Of a DNA stretch of 17,528 nt, positions 3,519-17,528 are shown in pieces. Position 1 is the first letter of the stretch, and each line of letters begins with the position of its first letter. The notes under the pieces are model-generated. The model saw only the letters and a program-made list of their open reading frames with translations, searched no databases and was not told the DNA's origin. A program made the position numbers and the translations under genes. This stretch comes from a bacterium (GTDB taxonomy: Bacteria; Patescibacteriota; Minisyncoccia; Minisyncoccales; UBA10102): contig JAUYJR010000052.1 in NCBI GenBank assembly GCA_030699255.1, forward strand, positions 1 to 17,528. Reading direction: 5' to 3'.

Positions 3519-4004
3519 TTACTCTTCTTTATACTGCGCAACCAGCACTCTGGCAGGACGAATAACACTCTCTGAATACCGGTATCCTTTCTCCGCAACA
3601 CGGACAATTGTTCCCGGTGGAGCATGTACTCCTTCAACTTCTCCAATTGCTTCGTGGAGCGCGGGATTAAAGGACTCCCCTTCTGCTGGCGCAATTTCCT
3701 GAATTCCACACAAGGCCAACGCGCTCCGCAACTGGGACTGAATTTGAGAGAGCCCCAAACTCATATCTTTGTTTGAATCGTAAGAAACTTGCAGGGCGCG
3801 CTCAAGACTATCAAGAACCGGAAGAAGCCGCTGGAGAATATCTTTCTTTGCTCGTAGCTCCACATCTTGCCTGCGGGAACTCTCGCCCTTTTTGTAATTC
3901 TCAAAATCTGCCTGCGTTCTCTTCCAGTTATTCATACACTCATAAAGCTCAGCCTCCAACTTTTGGGAATCCGGCTTCTCATTTGTTTTTTCTTTTTGCT
4001 TCAT
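3519..4004 (-). CDS. grpE: nucleotide exchange factor GrpE
   Basis: 161 aa with coiled-coil N-terminus and a GrpE-type C-terminus (FNPALHEAI...G.IV.V.EKGY...VIRPARV). Sits between hrcA and dnaK. 4-nt overlap with the hrcA stop. Confidence 0.9.
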   Translation of the reverse strand: MKQKEKTNEKPDSQKLEAELYECMNNWKRTQADFENYKKGESSRRQDVELRAKKDILQRLLPVLDSLERALQVSYDSNKDMSLGLSQIQSQLRSALALCGIQEIAPAEGESFNPALHEAIGEVEGVHAPPGTIVRVAEKGYRYSESVIRPARVLVAQYKEE

Positions 4005-8415: not shown

Positions 8416-9060
8416 TTACGGGGAGAATAAACGCCCCGCGTTGGAGATAATTTCTTTCCACATCTTGAGCCAGTCCGTAATGCCCCGAATGAATCCTCGC
8501 TTCTTTGACTTGGTCATATGGGAAAGTCCGGGAAGCGCGGTTGCCACAATCTTTTTCTTCATTCGCCGGGCAGTCACCGTAACAGCCACCTCCACAAGAT
8601 ACCCCTGCATGGCCTCCCGATCCACCGCCTCCCATATTTCTCGCTTGAGAATACGGAAACCGCTTATGGGGCCTCCCGAATACCTGCTTAAGCTGTTTAC
8701 TAGCGAGTTGCCCCGGTCAATAGATCCCACAGCCATGTCAGCTTCTTCTTGCTCCATAAGCTTTATGAGGGCAGAAACATGCCCTTGAGAAAGAGAGAAG
8801 AGGTCCGCATCAGCAAACAAAAGCAAGGGGGCTTTGGTAAGTTCAACACCGCGCGCCAACGCCTCTCCTTTTCCCAAGTTTACTGGCAAACAAACAACGC
8901 GAGCTCCTCCAGCTCGCGCTCTCTCTGCTGTTCTGTCTTCTGATCCGTCATCAACAACAAGAACTTCCGCAATGCTTCCGTGCCCCAAGAGCACGGAGGT
9001 AACATGTTGAATTGTTTTTTCTTCGTTAAACGCGGGAATAATCGCGGCAATCTTCTGCAT
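8416..9060 (-). CDS. family 2 glycosyltransferase
   Basis: AAIIPAFNEEKTI...VLVVDDGSEDRT...NLGKGEA...FADADL is a typical GT-A/GT2 N-terminal DxD architecture. The acceptor cannot be assigned. Confidence 0.8.
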   Translation of the reverse strand: MQKIAAIIPAFNEEKTIQHVTSVLLGHGSIAEVLVVDDGSEDRTAERARAGGARVVCLPVNLGKGEALARGVELTKAPLLLFADADLFSLSQGHVSALIKLMEQEEADMAVGSIDRGNSLVNSLSRYSGGPISGFRILKREIWEAVDREAMQGYLVEVAVTVTARRMKKKIVATALPGLSHMTKSKKRGFIRGITDWLKMWKEIISNAGRLFSP

Positions 9061-9083
9061 ACCTTAGTATAGCAGAAATGAAG

Positions 9084-9539
9084 CTATGAGATACTCTTGA
9101 GCAGATACTCTGCCACTCCCCCGGGAGTTTCCACCGTAACCTTCTCTCCTTTTTTCTTTCCCAAGAGAGCAAGTCCCAAAGGAGATTCGGCCGAAAGCTT
9201 TCCCTCCAGAGGATTTGCTTCTTGGGGACCTGTAATGGTAAACACGGAAGATTCTTTTCCTTCTACCAATGTTACGGTAGAACCAATGGCAACTTTCTCG
9301 CTTTGAGATGTCTGCTCCACCACCTCTGAATTTTTAAGCATGTGCTCTATTTCAGCAACGCGTGCCTCAACAAGCCCCTGCTCTTCTTTGGTGTTGGAGT
9401 AGTCAAAGTTTTCTGAAAGATCGCCAAATGCAATTGCCTTCTGCAGGCGCTCAGCCAACTCCTTTCTCTTTGTTGTTTTGAGATACTCAAGCTCTTCTCT
9501 GAGCTTTTGCTCTCCTTCTTTTGTGATGTATCGTATCAT
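9084..9539 (-). CDS. greA: transcription elongation factor GreA
   Basis: MIRYITKEGEQKLREELEYLK...DLSENFDYSNTKEEQ...ITGPQEANPLEGKLSAESPLGLALLGKKKGE is full-length GreA (151 aa). Start moved to the ATG at 9539. The track's 82-aa N-terminal extension runs through a terminator and a repeat hairpin. Confidence 0.9.
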   Translation of the reverse strand: MIRYITKEGEQKLREELEYLKTTKRKELAERLQKAIAFGDLSENFDYSNTKEEQGLVEARVAEIEHMLKNSEVVEQTSQSEKVAIGSTVTLVEGKESSVFTITGPQEANPLEGKLSAESPLGLALLGKKKGEKVTVETPGGVAEYLLKSIS

Positions 9540-9590
9540 AAATATATTTTGATTTTGCTTCCCTTTGTACTCTTTTTTTGCCCTTGTGTC

Positions 9591-9657
9591 AACAAAAACC
9601 GGCTTGGGGCTGTGGGCGCAACAGAGGAGAATGTTGTTGTACCCCCAGCCCCAAACC
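9591..9657 (-). terminator. intrinsic terminator closing the hammerhead/structured-RNA transcription unit
   Basis: On the minus strand GGTTTGGGGCTGGGGG (9657-9642) pairs with CCCACAGCCCCAAGCC (9616-9601). That is 16 positions with one U-G wobble and one mismatch, around a 25-nt loop. GGTTTTTGTT follows (9600-9591). The wobble exists only on the minus strand. Confidence 0.7.
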
Positions 9658-9737
9658 GACAAATGCTTGTGTATCAAAAGTGAACCAATCTCTCCGTTGA
9701 ATTCTCGTTTTGGTTTGCCAAAACAAGAACTCAGTTG

Positions 9738-9799
9738 AGAGGAGAAGTGTGAGTTGAAAGCAGGGTGCGACCTGACTCTAACCACATTTCTCCTATTTG
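9738..9799. repeat. 62-bp direct repeat, copy 1 (self-complementary hairpin)
   Basis: Identical base for base to 10268-10329. A diverged extension runs to about 9819. Confidence 0.95.
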
Positions 9800-10179
9800 C
9801 TTGCCCCTAGGAGGGGCTTGTTGGTGTCCCTACTTTTGGTAGGGACACCGTCCGTTCCATTCAGGAGGCAGATCCTCCTGACAGGATCGGATCGAATCGG
9901 CGGGACGGGGATCATCGCTGTACAGAGTACAGCGATCCCCGTTGCACCGCGGTTGCCGCGGTTGAGGGGGAACGAGTGATTCACGTGATTCGGTGGCCAT
10001 ATGGGCCACCTCCTTCCCCGACCGGGCGAATATTTTGGAATGCCCAGGCCGGCAGAAAAAGAGAAAAACGATTGAGCAATATCAGCCAAGATACAAAATA
10101 TGGGGCTGTATTGCTGTGCAAACAGATACTTCTCTCCTTCTGCCGACCCGAGCGGTGTGTGATGTAAAAGAACTTCAAT

Positions 10180-10271
10180 CTCTGTTTTCGCTCTTTTGAG
10201 CTCATCAGCTCGGACCTCCCGTAAAGCGGGACCCCGTCCCACCACGGGACAGGTACATCCGAGAAACAGAG
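10180..10271 (-). ncRNA. hammerhead self-cleaving ribozyme, type III topology
   Basis: Core CUGAUGA (10208-10202). Stem II GCUC-AAAA-GAGC. GAA (10189-10187). A 7-bp stem III includes the A15.1-U16.1 pair. U17 is at 10264. Stem I is 6-7 bp. Full parse in the findings. Confidence 0.8.
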
Positions 10272-10329
10272 GAGAAGTGTGAGTTGAAAGCAGGGTGCGA
10301 CCTGACTCTAACCACATTTCTCCTATTTG
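10268..10329. repeat. 62-bp direct repeat, copy 2
   Basis: Identical to 9738-9799, a period of 530 bp. A diverged extension runs to about 10350. Its minus-strand 3' edge overlaps stem III of the hammerhead by 4 nt. Confidence 0.95.
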
Positions 10330-10373
10330 TTGACCCCGGTGGAGGGGCTTAGTTTACGCCGAGGCGAAAGAGG

Positions 10374-10658
10374 TCATGACACACGATGGACGCGGATCAC
10401 ATGCTTGTCGCTGACGCCGGCGTTAATGCCGACTTTGTACGCCGAGGCGTACGCGACCAACTCCAGGCGCTCTCCCACCTGGAGGGCGTCGAGCAGTGGG
10501 GTCCACTGCTCCGTCAACGCCTCGACGTTCTTGTCGCTCATGCGCCCTTTGGCGCAAGAGCGAGCGTTTTCGGCCGCAATTGCGGCCAGATGCTCGGCAT
10601 CACTCGGGGCCACGGTCTGAATCTGGCCACCATAGCGACTAACCTCAAATAAATGCAT
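10374..10658 (-). CDS. hypothetical protein, 94 aa (islet ORF)
   Basis: ATG preceded by GAAGGAGGATATC, a strong SD with a 5-nt spacer. G/C-rich third codon positions throughout. I recognise no family. Confidence 0.7.
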   Translation of the reverse strand: MHLFEVSRYGGQIQTVAPSDAEHLAAIAAENARSCAKGRMSDKNVEALTEQWTPLLDALQVGERLELVAYASAYKVGINAGVSDKHVIRVHRVS

Positions 10659-10819
10659 GATATCCTCCTTCTGCCCGGATAACGTTCCGGGCCAACATAT
10701 TTGTCCACAGAAGACCTTTGCAAGATCAACTGCCTCCTGTGGAACAAGGAACCAACAATATACATTGTCTTCTCCTTGCTCCGCAGGATGGATGATATAA
10801 AAGGTACTACTGCTCTATT

Positions 10820-10856
10820 CAGAACAAGCAAACTCTCCTGTTTAAGGAGAGTTTGC
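10820..10856 (-). terminator. terminator/attenuator-like hairpin inside the 5' leader of the 94-aa ORF
   Basis: Minus strand reads GCAAACTCTCC-TTAAACA-GGAGAGTTTGC, an 11-bp perfect stem, followed by TTGTTCTG. It lies about 65-100 nt downstream of promoter P3. Confidence 0.4.
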
Positions 10857-10927
10857 GTCCATTTTCTCTTTATTGGCGCCGGTCTCTCCCCAAACCGGCG
10901 CCATCCATATGCTTGATTGTTAAGGGC

Positions 10928-10955
10928 ATTATATCACACTTTCCAGATTTGTCAA
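10928..10955 (-). promoter_or_regulatory. near-consensus sigma70 promoter P3 (extended -10)
   Basis: Minus strand reads TTGACA (10955-10950), a 16-nt spacer, then TGATATAAT (10936-10928). Confidence 0.65.
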
Positions 10956-11060
10956 GCCCTTTCATTCCCTGTGAAAATCCACTACGTCAATGAACTTTCA
11001 CAGGGAGAGCAGAGAGTAGAAAATAATTCGTGCAGTTTTATTTTCTCTCTCTGCTCTTTG

Positions 11061-11504
11061 TCACACAATAGCGGCGAGTGACGCGCCGAGGAGCTTCTCG
11101 GCAACCTGCCGAGCAAGCTCCTCCAAAGCAGAACCTTCCATGTCCTCCGGCCGGACAAGAAAGTCTGCCTTGGCAAACCCCTTGGCCGGGTCGGTAGTCA
11201 AGTCGAGTGTTACCACTCGACCCTGCCACTCAACCCAGCCATCCACACCATGGTACCGATCGGCGGGGCTGCCGACCGCAGTGTACAGACGGAGCTGGAA
11301 CCAATCTTCCAGCTCCAGCGCCATACACACCGTGGCGTGGAGATCGGAGGCCATCCGTGGGCCAGGATCGGCCGGATCCCACGGCTGGCACTCCCTCACC
11401 AGAGCCAGGGCCTGCCTGTATGGCAGGTACTCCTGGCTCTGGCGCCAGACGCACTCTCCGAGCACCTCGTGCTCAAAGAGCCTTCCAGTGTAACCGTTGC
11501 CCAC
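11061..11504 (-). CDS. hypothetical protein, 147 aa (islet ORF)
   Basis: GTG at 11504 preceded by AAAGGAGGTAAGTTC (SD AGGAGG, 7-nt spacer). Strong G/C bias at third codon positions. The track's start at 11558 lies upstream of the gene's own -10 box. I recognise no family. Confidence 0.7.
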   Translation of the reverse strand: MGNGYTGRLFEHEVLGECVWRQSQEYLPYRQALALVRECQPWDPADPGPRMASDLHATVCMALELEDWFQLRLYTAVGSPADRYHGVDGWVEWQGRVVTLDLTTDPAKGFAKADFLVRPEDMEGSALEELARQVAEKLLGASLAAIV

Positions 11505-11548
11505 GAACTTACCTCCTTTCAAATCAAATTTTGTAGTGATCTGGGAAT

Positions 11549-11577
11549 AGTATATCACAAATATAAAGAAAAGTCAA
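11549..11577 (-). promoter_or_regulatory. near-consensus sigma70 promoter P2 (extended -10)
   Basis: Minus strand reads TTGACT (11577-11572), a 17-nt spacer, then TGATATACT (11557-11549). It shares GGGCTTGAC and GTGATATA with P3. Confidence 0.65.
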
Positions 11578-11602
11578 GCCCCCTTGAGGACCTGACTATA
11601 CG

Positions 11603-11836
11603 CTATTGCCGCGTATTTTTTGGAGGCCAAAGAATCTTTACAACGCATCCTTTCTCCCCTATTGGGGAGCATTTTGGACAGTCAGCACCAAACACTGCTG
11701 TGGCACCAACTGCTCCTTTTCCCATCCTCTCCCGCAACTCCTCCTTTCTTTTGTTACTGAGGAGCTGTGCAAATCTCTCCCATTCCACGGAGTACTCTCC
11801 GCATATGGGACACTGAAAGGTAAAGATGCCCTGCAA
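11603..11836 (-). CDS. small zinc-ribbon protein, 77 aa (islet ORF)
   Basis: Two CxxC pairs (CPIC near the N-terminus, CPKC near the C-terminus). TTG start preceded by AAAGGAG with an 8-nt spacer. Confidence 0.55.
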   Translation of the reverse strand: MQGIFTFQCPICGEYSVEWERFAQLLSNKRKEELRERMGKGAVGATAVFGADCPKCSPIGEKGCVVKILWPPKNTRQ

Positions 11837-11894
11837 GATACCAGCTCCTTTCTCTACAACATGTCTACAACCGTTTTTCCTGGAGCCGAGAGGT

Positions 11895-11922
11895 ATTATA
11901 CATATTATTAAAACTGTGTCAA
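11895..11922 (-). promoter_or_regulatory. consensus sigma70 promoter P1
   Basis: Minus strand reads TTGACA (11922-11917), a 16-nt spacer, then TATAAT (11900-11895). The -35 box overlaps the mrdA TGA stop (11921-11919). Confidence 0.6.
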
Positions 11923-13832
11923 GGACTCGTACGAGAGAAGTATTTCTGAAAAACCTCCCGTACTACGGGGAGTGCTCCCACCTGCCCTTCTAATATATCT
12001 TCCGTAACGATAACAAAGACAATTTCAGGATCCTCATAGGGAGCAAAGGCAACCGTCCACGCATAGAGATAGTCTCTCCCCTGCCCGTCTGTTCTACCTG
12101 TTTGGGCTGTTCCCGTTTTTGCCGCAACCTGCACCGAAAGAGAATTCAGCCAGCCTTGAGCTGATCCCTGAGTTACCGTCTGGCGCATCCCTTGTTGCAC
12201 CGTTTCTATATAGATTTGTGTTCCAATATTATCTTGAATAATTTCAGGCTCTATCTCTTTACTCTCTTTTGTCTCGCTGTCTATGACCTCAGCAACAAAC
12301 CGAGGACGATATATGGTTCCTCCATTTGCAATACCAACAAATGCCGAGGCAATCTGCAAGGGCGTTGCGGCAAACGCGCCCTGCCCAATAGAGAGGTGGT
12401 ACGTACTCCCCAATCTCCAATTTTCGTCAATGGTTGGCAAGGTGCCCCTCCCCTCTCCTGCAATATCAATGCCAGTTTTCTCCCCCAATCCAAATAATTT
12501 GTAGTATTCAAGAATCTTTGTGGGACCCAGTCCTTTTTGATCTTCAAATCCGCCACCCACAATGTAGAAGAATGTGTTAACAGAGTCCGCAATAGCGCGC
12601 TTCACATCGCTCCATCCATGGTATTTATGATCTCGGAAACACTCATCTTGTTCGGCAAATTTGTTCCATATACAGATTTGTTCCGGAGAATAGATGCGCG
12701 TTGCAGGCGTAATAATACCTTCTTCAAGCGCGGCAAGAGCAATAATGGGTTTCATAACAGATCCTGTTGGAAACCCAATTCCTCCCATTGCGCGGTTAAA
12801 TAGCGGATTAAGAGGATTTGCAATGAACAAACTCCATTCCTGCTTTGTAACATTTTTGGAAAACATAGAAGGATCAAAGCTTGGTACGCTTACCATACCA
12901 AGCACTCCTCCTGTTTTTGGATCTAGTGCTACAGCCGACGCTTTCTTTGCTCCCGTCACCTGTAAGACATGTTCAATGGCCTCCCTTATATCTTTCTGGA
13001 GCTGAAGATCAAGATACAGCACCAGACTACTACCCGCAACGGGAAGAACTCTCTCTTCGCTCCGAACGATGGTTCCTCGTGCATCTCTTGTAAATACCTC
13101 CATGCCAGGAATTCCTCTAAGTATTGTTTCATACGACTGCTCAATGCCCATCTTGCCAATTCGATCGGTAACAGAGTAGCCTTTCAGATTCTTTAGCTCT
13201 TCTTGAGAAATTTTTGCCGTATACCCTATTACATGAGCTAAAAGATCTCCCGCCACGTACTCTCGGAAGGTGCTTGAACGCAGTTCACAGCCTTGAAGCC
13301 GATCAGCTCTTGCTTGGGCTGTAACAAGCTCTTCGTGAGAAAGATTATGAATAACCACCATGAGAGGATCTTCGGTTTCATAAAATTCCGTAAGAAGCTC
13401 ATCAAATGGACGATTCGCAATTACGGAGAGTTCTTTAAAGAGCTCCTCTTTTGAGTTACGGGCTCCCGGAACATCTCGCTTGTCGCACACCAGATCAAAT
13501 GCCTGGCGGTTTCGCACCAGCTGAGTCATGGAGCGATCGTATAAAACTCCGCGATCAGCCAGCACAGAAACTCTTCTCAATGTATTATTCTCGGCAAGCG
13601 TTGCAAGCTCTTTGTGAGAAACAATCTGCAACGCAAACACGCGCACGCCAAAGAGAAGCACAATGAGGAGAAAGAAGCAGTACAAGAGGAGAAATATTGT
13701 TCGAGAGAGCGGAGATTCCAGCTTCTTGTCTTGTTCTCCGTTCTCATGCAGAATATCGTGCGGTTCAATATCCTGCATTCCTCCGCGCCTGATTGTTCTA
13801 TGAGAAGATTGAAAAGGAGGAAAGTCGAACAT
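11919..13832 (-). CDS. mrdA: penicillin-binding protein 2 (elongasome transpeptidase)
   Basis: N-terminal TM helix, a PBP dimerisation region, and transpeptidase motifs SxxK (GSVMKP), SxN (DSVNTF) and KTG (AKTGTA). Lies downstream of mreC-mreD. The start could instead be the internal Met at 13778. Confidence 0.85.
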   Translation of the reverse strand: MFDFPPFQSSHRTIRRGGMQDIEPHDILHENGEQDKKLESPLSRTIFLLLYCFFLLIVLLFGVRVFALQIVSHKELATLAENNTLRRVSVLADRGVLYDRSMTQLVRNRQAFDLVCDKRDVPGARNSKEELFKELSVIANRPFDELLTEFYETEDPLMVVIHNLSHEELVTAQARADRLQGCELRSSTFREYVAGDLLAHVIGYTAKISQEELKNLKGYSVTDRIGKMGIEQSYETILRGIPGMEVFTRDARGTIVRSEERVLPVAGSSLVLYLDLQLQKDIREAIEHVLQVTGAKKASAVALDPKTGGVLGMVSVPSFDPSMFSKNVTKQEWSLFIANPLNPLFNRAMGGIGFPTGSVMKPIIALAALEEGIITPATRIYSPEQICIWNKFAEQDECFRDHKYHGWSDVKRAIADSVNTFFYIVGGGFEDQKGLGPTKILEYYKLFGLGEKTGIDIAGEGRGTLPTIDENWRLGSTYHLSIGQGAFAATPLQIASAFVGIANGGTIYRPRFVAEVIDSETKESKEIEPEIIQDNIGTQIYIETVQQGMRQTVTQGSAQGWLNSLSVQVAAKTGTAQTGRTDGQGRDYLYAWTVAFAPYEDPEIVFVIVTEDILEGQVGALPVVREVFQKYFSRTSP

Positions 13833-15118: not shown

Positions 15119-15590
15119 ATAAACTTCGATCGTATGCTCAAATTTTGTGCAGGGCATGCTTCCATGTGCCTGAGAAACTTATGAGCGTAGTGGGCGTAAA
15201 TTGCCAGCCAAGTACATTGCAAAGACCATTAGTACTCCTCAGCTTAACTCGTTGCCGAGCTTCCACTTAGAGCCTATCAACCTCGTCTTCTTCGAGGGGT
15301 CTTTGAGGATTAATCTTAAGGTAGGCTTCGCGCTTATATGCCTTCAGCGCTTATCCCTTCCCAACTTAGCTACCCAGCGATGCTCCGGGCGGAACAACTG
15401 GTACACCAGAGGTTGGTTCGTTCCGGTCCTCTCGTACTAAGAACGACTCCTTTCAATCCTCAGCGCCTGCGGTAGATAGGGACCAACCTGTCTCACGACG
15501 GTCTGAACCCAGCTCACGTACCACTTTAATTGGCGAACAACCAAACCCTTGGGAGCTGCTTCACCCCCAGGATGTGATGAGCCGACATCG

Positions 15591-16456
15591 CCTGTCGACA
15601 TTTTTCTTCCGTTACCAGAAGGATCGGACTATATCTTCACCCCACAATCACTTTGCGACTAAGGGGGTCGGCGTGTTATACAGATTTTAGCTCTGTATAA
15701 GGAACATATTGTTAATGTTCACAAGTCTCTACGGGGCTATAAATCAATTTGTATTTCATGGATGGAATCAGGAGATCTCCGATTAAATTTTTCAGAGTCG
15801 GTATAGAAGACTTGATAAATCTTATACGATAGTATTCTTTGTCGCGATTCAACCTTGCCTCTAATCCTATTTTACAAAGAAGTCGTATAAGTCTAAGTTG
15901 GTCCTCAATGCCGAACTGTTGCGTATTCAGGTATATATCTGAATCTCTGCACCTACTTCCATCATCCATAAACCATATGCTTACAACATGGGGATCGAGC
16001 CGAAGTTCTGTTGGAATAACTTTTTTGCCATTGCGATAAAATCGCCGGTATAATTCGGTTATTTCCGGATGTTGGCGGGTATAAAAACGGTATGCGACTC
16101 TTTGGCCGTTTCCATTTCGCATCTTTGGTCCCGAAACACAGATACTTCGCAGTATGCTGAATTTCCAATCAACATACTCTTTTGCCCGAAACATATGATT
16201 TACTTCCAGAAAAGCATCCTTTCTTCCCGGCATGATCCGGAGGTATCCATCACCAAGGATCGAACCGAGAATTGTAGATGTCTGTAATTGAGTTAAGCTT
16301 CCCACGGCATTGTCCATAGATATGGGTACATTATACCATATGGAGTTCACCGTTATAAGCCGATTTTTGTTTTTCTTCGAATCTCTATTTCTCTCGAAGA
16401 ACAGGTATGACATTACTGCCATAGCACCCCGATTATAAATTTATAACTTATGGTTA
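15591..16456 (-). mobile_element. group I intron in 23S domain V (between E. coli U2500 and C2501)
   Basis: The exon sequence GTTCGGCACCT | CGATGTCGGCTC is split by 866 nt. The 5' exon ends in U and the intron ends in G. The intron segment GGGTGCT (16429-16423) can pair with the exon end GGCACCT (16463-16457) as P1, with a U-G pair at the splice site. A LAGLIDADG ORF sits inside. Confidence 0.8.
15712..16422 (-). CDS. LAGLIDADG homing endonuclease (double-motif, intron-encoded)
   Basis: Two LAGLIDADG motifs (ILGSILGDGYL and VSIWFMDDGS) at monomeric double-domain spacing. The true start may be the internal Met at 16317 (MDNAVGSL...). That would leave more 5' intron sequence for the ribozyme core. 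Confidence 0.9.
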   Translation of the reverse strand: MAVMSYLFFERNRDSKKNKNRLITVNSIWYNVPISMDNAVGSLTQLQTSTILGSILGDGYLRIMPGRKDAFLEVNHMFRAKEYVDWKFSILRSICVSGPKMRNGNGQRVAYRFYTRQHPEITELYRRFYRNGKKVIPTELRLDPHVVSIWFMDDGSRCRDSDIYLNTQQFGIEDQLRLIRLLCKIGLEARLNRDKEYYRIRFIKSSIPTLKNLIGDLLIPSMKYKLIYSPVETCEH

Positions 16457-16496
16457 AGGTGCCGAACAGGGCCGTAGATATGGACTCGCGGGCCCT

Positions 16497-16528
<32 letters not shown>

Positions 16529-17528
16529 TGATGATCTCCGCGTGTCCCACAAGAACACGTCGGTTCACTAAGTTCTGGTTTCCCAACTGCTCGACATATC
16601 CGTCTCGCAGTAAAGCTGGCTTTTGCCTTTACACTATCACTCCGATTTCCATCCGGAGCTAGCCAACCTTTAAACGCCTCCGCTACTTTTTAGGAGGCAA
16701 GCACCCCACCTAAACTACCAACCACTCACTGTCCCCCGTTTTACGAGGTTAGTCTTACCCACAATCCAGACGGGTGTTTCATTGGCGACTCCATTCGCCC
16801 CGAAAGGCGAACTTCAAAGTCTCCCCGCTACGCTACGCAGAAAAGCAAACAAGACAATAAGAAGATATAGTAAAGCTCCCGGGGTCTTTCCGTCTAGCCG
16901 CAGGTAGGGGGCATCTTTACCCCCATTGCATTTTCACCGAGCTGCTCCTGGAGACAGTTCCCCGGTCGTGACGCCATTCATGCGGGCCTGAATTTACCAG
17001 GCAAGGGAATACGCTACTTTAACACGGTTATAGTTACCGCGGACGTTCACTGGGGCTTCACTCACTCAGCAACACACGGCAAGCCGCATGAAACCGGCAA
17101 GCTTAACACTCCAGCACTGGTCAGGCGTCAGCCTCTATACATCCTCTTACGAGTTAGCAGAGACCTGTGTTTTTGGTAAACAGTCGCCGGGAAATCGTTT
17201 GCTGCGGCCCATCTTGCGATGGGCGGGTCTTATTCCGAAGGTACGACCACTAATTTGCCGAGTTCCTTCAGGAGCTTTCACTCGTTCACCTAGGCACGTT
17301 TATGCCTACCCACCTGTGTCGGTTTGCGGTACGGACTCACCAAACTCATATTCTTGGAGATTTTCTGGGAAGAATGCTCACCTGGATTCCGCCTCCCGAA
17401 GGAAGCAGTCTTCGCGCTGCTTGCGCTCCCGAAGGAGAACTTACAGAACGAACAGAAATCCAATAATCCGCCCAGGCTACTATTCTCCGTTATCCAAGAA
17501 AGCATTTGGCGAGGGGCCGGAATATTAA

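Follow-up and report, generated by a model that had tools for sequence, protein, structure and literature searches.

The minus strand of a 17,528-nucleotide (nt) stretch of bacterial DNA (contig JAUYJR010000052.1 of assembly GCA_030699255.1, Patescibacteriota; called the window below) carries a predicted type III hammerhead ribozyme that is followed by a long series of RNA hairpins. We read this feature as a stable, hammerhead-processed non-coding cargo RNA in a phage-derived island, and give this reading a probability of about 0.5. The predicted 3' cleavage product (10263 to 9593, 671 nt) extends from a 5'-hydroxyl end at C10263 to a terminator-like hairpin and corresponds to a feature that had been described in an original prediction, made from the sequence alone, as a hairpin-dense functional RNA. 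To our knowledge, hammerheads are abundant in bacteria and phages and their biological purpose is still largely unexplained. At this locus the ribozyme appears to set the 3' end of one RNA and the 5' end of another, structured and non-coding one. What would be new on this reading is a hammerhead-delimited cassette with a large non-coding hairpin array as its cargo; the ribozyme at its head and the layout belong to types that are already known. If the RNA accumulates, hammerhead-delimited cassettes can carry RNA cargo besides genes; if it is an inert tail, what remains is a phage-type hammerhead of the ordinary kind and a long, structured 3' untranslated region. Coordinates are those of the window, and all features are on the minus strand unless another strand is named.

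The hammerhead accounts for only the first ~90 nt of the feature. Its core, its stems and the covariation within its family indicate that 10271-10180 is a genuine type III hammerhead, and self-cleavage is predicted. Stem III, the open stem, pairs C10271-U10265 with A10186-G10180. Stem I pairs 10263-10257 with 10215-10209 and holds a 41-nt insertion of two hairpins, while stem II (10201-10198 with 10193-10190) consists of four base pairs (bp) with an AAAA loop, GCUC-AAAA-GAGC. The core CUGAUGA (10208-10202) and the GAAA element (10189-10186) are intact. Cleavage is expected between U10264 and C10263, after the triplet U10266-U10265-U10264 (UUU), which obeys the NUH rule. All three stems form in the minimum-energy fold.

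A search with a degenerate pattern made of the core and the window ribozyme's own arms yielded 11 metagenome loci, several of them from 0.1-micrometre groundwater filtrates, which have the same ribozyme and substrate strand and lack the stem I insertion. These relatives match the Rfam family Hammerhead_3 (RF00008) over its full length with 36-40 bits (threshold 48.5); the window copy gives no Hammerhead_3 match because of its stem I insertion. In an alignment of the family (10 distinct sequences), 93.9% of the cells are paired and six pairs have changed on both sides, against 28-53% paired cells in slid controls. Stems I and II are 100% paired, parts of stems I and III being fixed by the search pattern, so that invariance there arises by construction. 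A custom covariance model derived from the family scores the window ribozyme at 70.4 bits (E = 6e-18). Run with filters off over 9000-12200, the same model finds no second hammerhead, the next best hit reaching 10 bits, and no ribozyme of the polarity opposite to the hammerhead was found by cmscan.

The start coordinate of the predicted feature, 10263, is the first base 3' of the cleavage site, and its end coordinate, 9591, is the last base of the U-tract 3' of the final hairpin. All eleven helices that had been proposed (H1 to H11) were recovered where the original prediction placed them, and segments folded singly give the claimed hairpins. The first eight form the array that we regard as the cargo (9803-10145), a series of stable hairpins with no conserved open reading frame (ORF) and no Rfam match: H1, with a 16-bp outer stem including two G-U pairs (-40.2 kcal/mol), H2 (-16.2 kcal/mol), H3 (-25.3 kcal/mol), H4 (-11.1 kcal/mol), H5 (-24.9 kcal/mol), an extended H6 (-24.0 kcal/mol), H7 (-19.7 kcal/mol) and H8 (-9.5 kcal/mol). 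They are followed by H9 (-24.0 kcal/mol), which is the second copy of a direct-repeat hairpin, and by H10 (9698-9733), a 16-bp hairpin with two G-U pairs that exist on the minus strand only (-20.7 kcal/mol on this strand versus -12.3 on the plus strand). The architecture is a linear series of simple, near-perfect local hairpins, many of whose stems are perfect palindromes with 3-5-nt loops, and not an 'ornate' multi-junction fold.

The 756 nt between 10340 and 9585 fold with -365.9 kcal/mol, compared with -243.9 +/- 9.0 for dinucleotide shuffles (z = -13.6), and the 450 nt located 3' of the ribozyme give z = -14.1. In a scan with 200-nt sliding windows, positions 9701-10000 reach z values of -10 to -12; the median for the window is -1.0, and the 23S rRNA gives -3 to -4. 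The plus strand of the RNA region also folds far beyond its shuffles (z = -15.4), so that the strand cannot be chosen from the z-score. We assign the RNA to the minus strand because of the count of G-U pairs, the absolute energies, the ribozyme and the U-tract. The strand-specific wobble pairs noted in the original prediction proved more numerous than it had counted, with 14 G-U pairs on the minus versus 5 on the plus strand in the minimum-energy folds of the hairpins. The summed hairpin energies are -298.8 kcal/mol for the minus and -272.0 for the plus strand, only H9 and H7 favouring the latter. The claim of a functional minus-strand RNA therefore stands as far as a transcript-level feature of this strand is concerned, given the G-U bias, the orientation of the hammerhead and the terminal hairpin with its U-tract. 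The statement that the RNA resembles no known class also held: cmscan of 9300-10700 at E<=10 returned HH9 together with chance-level microRNA and Spi-1 matches only, and none to ROOL, GOLLD, HEARO, OLE, raiA or other ribozyme classes, and a scan of the whole window at Rfam gathering thresholds found rRNA and tRNA only.

The RNA is predicted to end at H11 (9591-9659), an intrinsic-terminator-like hairpin with a 23-bp stem (-39.5 kcal/mol) that is followed by UUUUUGUU. H11 is not listed by an automatic terminator scan because its 11-nt loop exceeds 8 nt. This loop (9631-9620) reads UUCUCCUCUGUU, which is a third copy of the 3' arm of a 55-nt hairpin described below together with the hammerhead substrate strand; with three more bases, ACA-UUCUCCUCUGUU spans 9620-9634. 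Within 2 kb, ~0.1 matches of 12 bases would arise by chance. The third, partial copy is uncleavable, since the next base is G and it has no stem I partner. Speculatively, the copy in the H11 loop could pair with the stem III strand freed by cleavage, or with AGGAGAA sequences.

The ribozyme is immediately preceded by a direct repeat, of which copy 1 (10268-10337) contains the 55-nt hairpin 10324-10270, directly 5' of the hammerhead; a further small hairpin (10347-10334) lies just upstream. Copy 2 (9738-9807) contains the hairpin 9794-9740, and no ribozyme follows it. The repeat is 62-70 nt long, and its two copies are 100% identical over 62 nt and spaced by 530 nt; in another contig, L083, the break falls precisely where the repeat stops. 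The hairpin of copy 1 abuts stem III (10271-10265), so that copy 1 ends where stem III starts, and the stop codon (10374) of the upstream gene, ORF94, is found ~50 nt 5' of this hairpin. Neither behind copy 2 nor behind the third copy is there a sequence capable of forming stems I and III or a cleavable triplet. The possibility that copy 2 precedes a degenerate second hammerhead was considered and rejected, as 56 of 1000 shuffles reach the same similarity and the covariance model finds none.

A hairpin in front of the ribozyme is present in 11 of the 11 metagenome loci, with varying sequence (GGGAAGUU/AACUUCCC, GGGAG/CUCCC, GGGUUUU/AAAACCC, AGGAGAA/UUCUCCU). The 23-nt ribozyme core with stem II matched 28 phage contigs, which carry one to four type III hammerheads each and show no similarity to the window outside the ribozyme. 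The hammerhead is situated 25-45 nt after a stop codon and directly 3' of a hairpin in most of the phage copies examined, and in about one-third of them the next ORF (at least 60 amino acids, aa) begins 19-31 nt downstream of the ribozyme; in contig L092, two closely spaced hammerheads flank a single gene. The window shows the same layout, with the hairpin directly 5' of stem III and after the upstream stop. By analogy, the best explanation of the 62-70-nt repeat is a pre-ribozyme hairpin that recurs at the ends of cassettes, and marks them, in a phage-type system. As this hairpin belongs to a widespread phage module (stop, hairpin, hammerhead, gene), the body of the RNA occupies the slot of the gene. 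The repeat was also considered as an attachment site or an integron attC site, and this was discarded, there being no GTTRRRY/RYYYAAC cores and no integrase; the phage module fits better.

The original prediction had argued that the region is not a protein gene, which we would word as probably non-coding. A 174-aa ORF (10317-9796) has no homologue and not even a self-match among 5.8 billion predicted proteins, and no Pfam match; neither GreA nor a 74-aa ORF within the RNA has an identical protein on record. The GC content of the 174-aa ORF is flat over the three codon positions (.56/.52/.55), unlike that of ORF94 (.66/.43/.73) and of another gene of the island, ORF147 (.72/.45/.72). The related contig L081 lacks its ATG and has a frameshift caused by a 2-nt indel at 10161-10160. 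We conclude that the region of the 174-aa ORF is most likely non-coding. Downstream of 10152 the frame (10152-9796) is open both in the window and in L081, and since this shorter frame stays open and the stop-free run is long, we retain a small probability for an orphan peptide. Over the 48 codons shared with L081 the four substitutions comprise three non-synonymous and one synonymous, which equals the neutral expectation.

Contig L081, a 1,235-bp Logan contig of run SRR22388049 that includes ORF94, the repeat hairpin and the ribozyme and extends 257 nt into the product, contains the sole homologue found for the RNA, and the feature is so far limited to two closely related strains. The metagenome runs in which the organism occurs are SRR13727534, SRR26726065 and SRR22388049. 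Between the two sequences the RNA part has 96.9% identity (8 substitutions and one 2-nt indel over 258 nt) and ORF94 is 76.6% identical, with 20/10/36 differences at the three codon positions. An interpretation of these values (97% versus 77%) as purifying selection on the RNA was rejected: the flanks are 95-100% identical too (end of ORF147, 97.5%; promoter region, 95%), and the ORF94 cassette is the outlier. The divergent block extends over ~10900-10286, from the leader hairpins upstream of ORF94 to the 5' arm of the repeat hairpin, and is 70-88% identical (10286-10903 compared with 300-950 of L081), as against 95-100% in the flanks. This suggests either that the ORF94 cassette was exchanged through recombination at conserved sequences on its boundaries, apparently with one crossover within the hairpin, or that ORF94 is under diversifying selection.

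The substitutions in the ribozyme and the body include three pair-preserving wobble changes, two that break pairs at helix ends and three in loops or linkers. The changes 10115 A to G and 10217 A to G keep pairing on the minus strand only, and 10046 U to C improves it on both strands. The repeat hairpin has accumulated seven substitutions and a 6-nt insertion, its stability being held by a register shift (-24.2 versus -24.1 kcal/mol), and its apical part CAGG-UCGCAC-CCUG is invariant. In a 12-bp hairpin of the leader (10828-10856), two double compensatory and two wobble changes have kept the pairing. Structural selection is therefore visible in the leader hairpin and the repeat hairpin. The leader hairpin lies ~70 nt downstream of the promoter at 10955; it may serve as an attenuator or terminate a small leader RNA that precedes ORF94.

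Several observations weigh against a dedicated cargo RNA. The identity with L081 corresponds to the background divergence of that contig, so conservation is silent on selection in the body. The covariation that the original prediction proposed to look for was not found inside the body, this one relative standing at its background divergence: no body helix shows a double compensatory change with respect to L081, and the substitutions at 10180 and 10053 break pairs. The hammerhead itself scores below the Rfam gathering threshold, its partial match to HH9 (RF02275) reaching 21.2 bits (E = 0.027, threshold 52). RNAs that catalyse reactions or bind ligands mostly look different from these simple, near-perfect hairpins. 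The region also has a frame that stays free of stops for 181 codons, somewhat beyond chance (20 of 1000 shuffles reach it). Transcription, cleavage and stability of the RNA are deduced from its sequence.

A more general difficulty is that dense hairpins occur throughout the island, so that the body may lack a separate role. Sliding-window z values across 9500-11700 are between -3 and -12, and shuffles with synonymous codons give -12.8 for ORF147, -5.1 for ORF94 and -5.3 for a third gene, ORF77, compared with +0.2 for the neighbouring PBP2 gene. The region of ORF147 folds with -310 kcal/mol in sense and -259 in antisense orientation. Some of the orphan genes beside hammerheads of the family have a milder structure (z = -4 to -6) and others none. 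Hairpin density, which the original prediction had taken as a sign of a dedicated RNA, is a property of the island transcripts and alone cannot identify one. It points to an island selected for extreme RNA structure, and to strong pressure on transcript stability in a mobile element, which is unusual.

The favoured reading, a processed cargo RNA, implies the following sequence of events. A consensus sigma-70 promoter (10928-10955; TTGACA, 16 nt, TG-TATAAT, with an extended -10 box and a score of 12/12) is the likely origin of a transcript with ORF94 and the RNA on it. Transcription from 10955 would run through the structured leader and ORF94, and the hammerhead would cut co-transcriptionally at U10264/C10263, right after the 55-nt hairpin. 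The upstream ORF94 mRNA would retain this hairpin as a protective 3' end with a cyclic phosphate. The downstream 671-nt RNA with its 5'-hydroxyl end would comprise the folded ribozyme, the eight hairpins, the second 55-nt hairpin, H10, and H11 with the U-tract; the hairpin array would stand in the gene slot of the phage module, and a terminator would replace the missing second ribozyme. Because the 5'-hydroxyl would be buried in the ribozyme fold, both ends are structured and single-stranded gaps are few, such an RNA should be very resistant to 5'-end-dependent and to 3'-exonucleolytic decay.

As to its function, we speculate that the RNA is most likely a stable protein-binding or decoy RNA that serves the island, and the identical hairpin, found towards the 3' side of each product, may tag the two alike for recognition or stability. 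A bolder version, which we find unlikely, sees in the 671-nt product a stand-alone RNA of a new, large 'hairpin-array' kind, the cargo of a hammerhead-delimited phage cassette, which owes an unusually long life to its 5'-hydroxyl, its ribozyme cap and its continuous helices and acts as a decoy or sponge for a host RNA-targeting or double-stranded RNA-binding factor, the hyper-structured mRNAs of the island following the same strategy of RNase resistance.

The sequence in question is part of an accessory island of ~2.32 kb (9593-11914), GC-rich and hyper-structured, that contains three small ORFs with their own promoters besides the hairpin-array RNA and is inserted between the PBP2 gene and greA. 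The GC content is 0.53-0.64 in the island and 0.45-0.48 in the flanks, and three sigma-70 promoters of consensus type lie on the minus strand of the island. The closest genome found (L001, GreA 80% identical) lacks the island: there the PBP2 gene is directly followed by a TTGACA-17-TACAAC promoter and then by greA, whereas in the window the greA promoter (9592-9564) is 2.32 kb away from the PBP2 gene. Homology with L001 stops at TTGACA(C/G)AG, just past the PBP2 stop codon. The island is flanked by an 8-bp direct repeat, TTGACACA. The left copy (11915-11922) overlaps the PBP2 stop and forms the -35 box of the first island promoter (12/12 in the promoter scan); the right copy (9585-9592) forms the -35 box of the greA promoter (TTGACA, 17 nt, TACAAA at 9569-9564). 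The pair could stem from duplication of a target site, or two promoters of consensus type could share these bases by coincidence. Neither a transposase, an integrase nor terminal inverted repeats were found in the island, nor a replication, relaxase or recombinase gene, iterons or a repeated hairpin sequence family. Between promoter and greA, L001 has a different element of 284 nt (3712-3995) with a ~30-bp closing stem made from inverted ends (GGGGGCGGGAUUCGAACUCACAUCGG...), a fold z of -11.5 and no Rfam match, which resembles either a miniature inverted-repeat insertion or a further structured RNA.

ORF94 (10374-10658) has a strong ribosome-binding site (GGAGG) and is preceded by a structured leader (10659-10925; fold z = -8.9) that includes the terminator-like hairpin 10856-10828. 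It has six relatives only among 1.84 billion representative proteins, some of them in phage early regions or beside an integrase, and is a real, if orphan, protein gene. An exact 12-nt duplication, CGCCTCGGCGTA, is present at 10438-10449, inside ORF94, and at 10355-10366, past its stop codon; the latter copy lies in a 16-nt stretch lacking in L081, which suggests a small templated insertion. ORF147 (11061-11504) has seven homologues in other contexts, and perfect stems encode its conserved motifs, LFEHEVLGE for example. ORF77 (11603-11836) encodes a zinc-ribbon protein and is flat in GC by codon position. Searches of the three ORFs against PHROGs, PADLOC, NCBIfam and Pfam gave nothing useful, sequence searches of the PDB were empty, and the AlphaFold models of ORF94 (pLDDT 53) and ORF147 (pLDDT 42) were too poor for a fold search. 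Elsewhere in the window, a partial 23S rRNA (15210-17528) scores 1080 bits over ~1500 model positions and has several shortened helices, features consistent with a deeply branching uncultured lineage.

The metagenome loci of the hammerhead family show arrays of unrelated small GC-rich orphan genes with a 3' hairpin-hammerhead, and the orphan genes in these arrays share near-identical structured 5' leaders composed of hairpins and a ribosome-binding site (L117, 1894-1943 and 2937-2986; L121, 601-705 and 1577-1683; one leader is common to L116 and L121). Genes for tRNA are found near the hammerhead loci in L116, L118 and L121, and in L124 a GC-rich block stops exactly at the ribozyme. In L119, read in the orientation of the ribozyme, a Ro60-like gene (TROVE and vWA; 12-1190) is followed by a hairpin and the same hammerhead (1223-1277) and then by a hairpin-forming non-coding stretch; the ribozyme there might release a Y-RNA-like partner of the Ro60-like gene. 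This Ro60 and an NYN protein in L115 are the only useful assignments that PHROGs, PADLOC, NCBIfam and Pfam provided for the orphan genes of the hammerhead family. A literature search on hammerheads in candidate-phyla bacteria, in cassettes or beside Ro60 found nothing relevant.

How do other explanations compare with a processed cargo RNA? The one that we take most seriously, while thinking it rather unlikely, is that the RNA is a by-product or spacer, a decayed cassette kept as a 3' untranslated tail that insulates the greA promoter from read-through and is structured by the pressure acting on the whole island. It would account for the hyper-structure of the island ORFs and the leader, for a body that diverges from L081 at the background rate and without covariation, for a second hairpin copy that lacks a ribozyme like a decayed cassette boundary, and for a terminator placed just before the greA promoter. 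However, insulation needs only a terminator after the ribozyme, and 470 nt of hairpins are excessive for this purpose. Passive decay is also difficult to reconcile with two 62-nt copies that are 100% identical while the same hairpin varies between strains at seven positions and by an indel, and the G-U strand bias points to selection on the transcript. There is little chance that the body is a small orphan protein gene, translated in the frame from ~10152 to 9796, for instance from a CUG at 10128, 8 nt after GGAG, with hairpins that represent an mRNA hyper-structure like that of ORF147. The 181-codon stop-free frame, rarely reached by shuffles and open in L081 downstream of the 2-nt indel, would agree with such a gene; ORF147 demonstrates that dense hairpins and coding coexist in this island, and ORF77 is likewise flat in GC by codon position. 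Against it stand the lack of any homologue, self-match or Pfam match in the searches described above and the fact that no canonical start codon is accompanied by an accessible Shine-Dalgarno sequence, since H1 takes up the GGAG. The frame moreover has a GC content of.53/.53/.60 by codon position, unlike ORF94 and ORF147, its substitutions are mostly non-synonymous, and the peptide would be of low complexity, rich in P, G, R and N.

We regard it as highly unlikely that the region is a retrozyme- or viroid-like mobile unit of 530 nt, present in 1.13 copies between the 62-nt repeats and excised by recombination or as a circular RNA. Such elements carry type III hammerheads too, the direct repeats at their 530-nt spacing do flank a highly structured non-coding unit and stop 3-4 nt short of the cleavage site, both strands are highly self-complementary, and the ORF94 cassette has apparently been exchanged with one crossover within the repeat hairpin. 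But there is a single ribozyme and one site that it can cleave (the sequence is CUCU-CAAC in copy 2, and position 17 is a G in the third copy), so that a monomer with two ribozyme-made ends could not be released, and there is no ribozyme of the opposite polarity. No further copy was found by BLAST of the whole 841-nt region (9540-10380) against phage and plasmid records, or in scans limited to exact short patterns (viral contigs were scanned for the repeat loop, H3 and H7, and JGI metagenomes for the repeat loop). A pre-ribozyme hairpin that recurs in phage cassettes is a simpler explanation of the repeat, and the fold is a chain of local hairpins and not a rod. We also consider it very improbable that the hairpins function in single-stranded DNA and not in RNA, for example as an origin of replication or transfer or as sites for recombination of the island. 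Both strands do fold far beyond chance, many stems are perfect palindromes with short loops, hairpins in DNA tolerate G-T wobbles, and the island is an insertion with a flanking 8-bp repeat. The strand bias, however, follows the direction of transcription of the ribozyme, the ORFs and the terminator, the hairpins also fill coding regions, which no origin requires, and the island has no replication, relaxase or recombinase gene, no iterons and no repeated hairpin family.

The cargo RNA can finally be set beside known systems. ROOL, GOLLD, OLE, HEARO and raiA have a similar size (500-800 nt) and a context related to mobile elements or phages, but they fold into conserved multi-helix junctions, in contrast to the linear hairpin chain of the window, which matches none of their covariance models at E<=10. 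Retrozymes and viroid-like circular RNAs share with it the type III hammerhead and a base-paired non-coding unit of a few hundred nt with direct repeats. They need two cleavage sites, whereas the window has one ribozyme and repeats that lack one; it has neither cleavage sites at both ends nor ribozymes of both polarities, and represents a stable chromosomal locus, syntenic in two strains, with no rod-like fold. With the type III hammerheads of Rfam (RF00008; partially RF02275) the window ribozyme has in common the core, the three stems with stem III open, the NUH triplet and the 4-bp stem II with its tetraloop, and it differs by the 41-nt, two-hairpin insertion in stem I and by a partial HH9 match of 21 bits that stays below gathering. 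The hairpin-hammerhead modules of tailed phages (IMG/VR) display the same order of stop codon, hairpin and type III hammerhead, their hairpin likewise recurs within a genome, and both are linked to small orphan genes, remote relatives of ORF94 being found in phage early regions or beside an integrase. In the window, the second hairpin copy is followed by a terminator instead of a ribozyme, and where a gene follows the ribozyme in about one-third of the phage copies, 470 nt of non-coding hairpins take its place.

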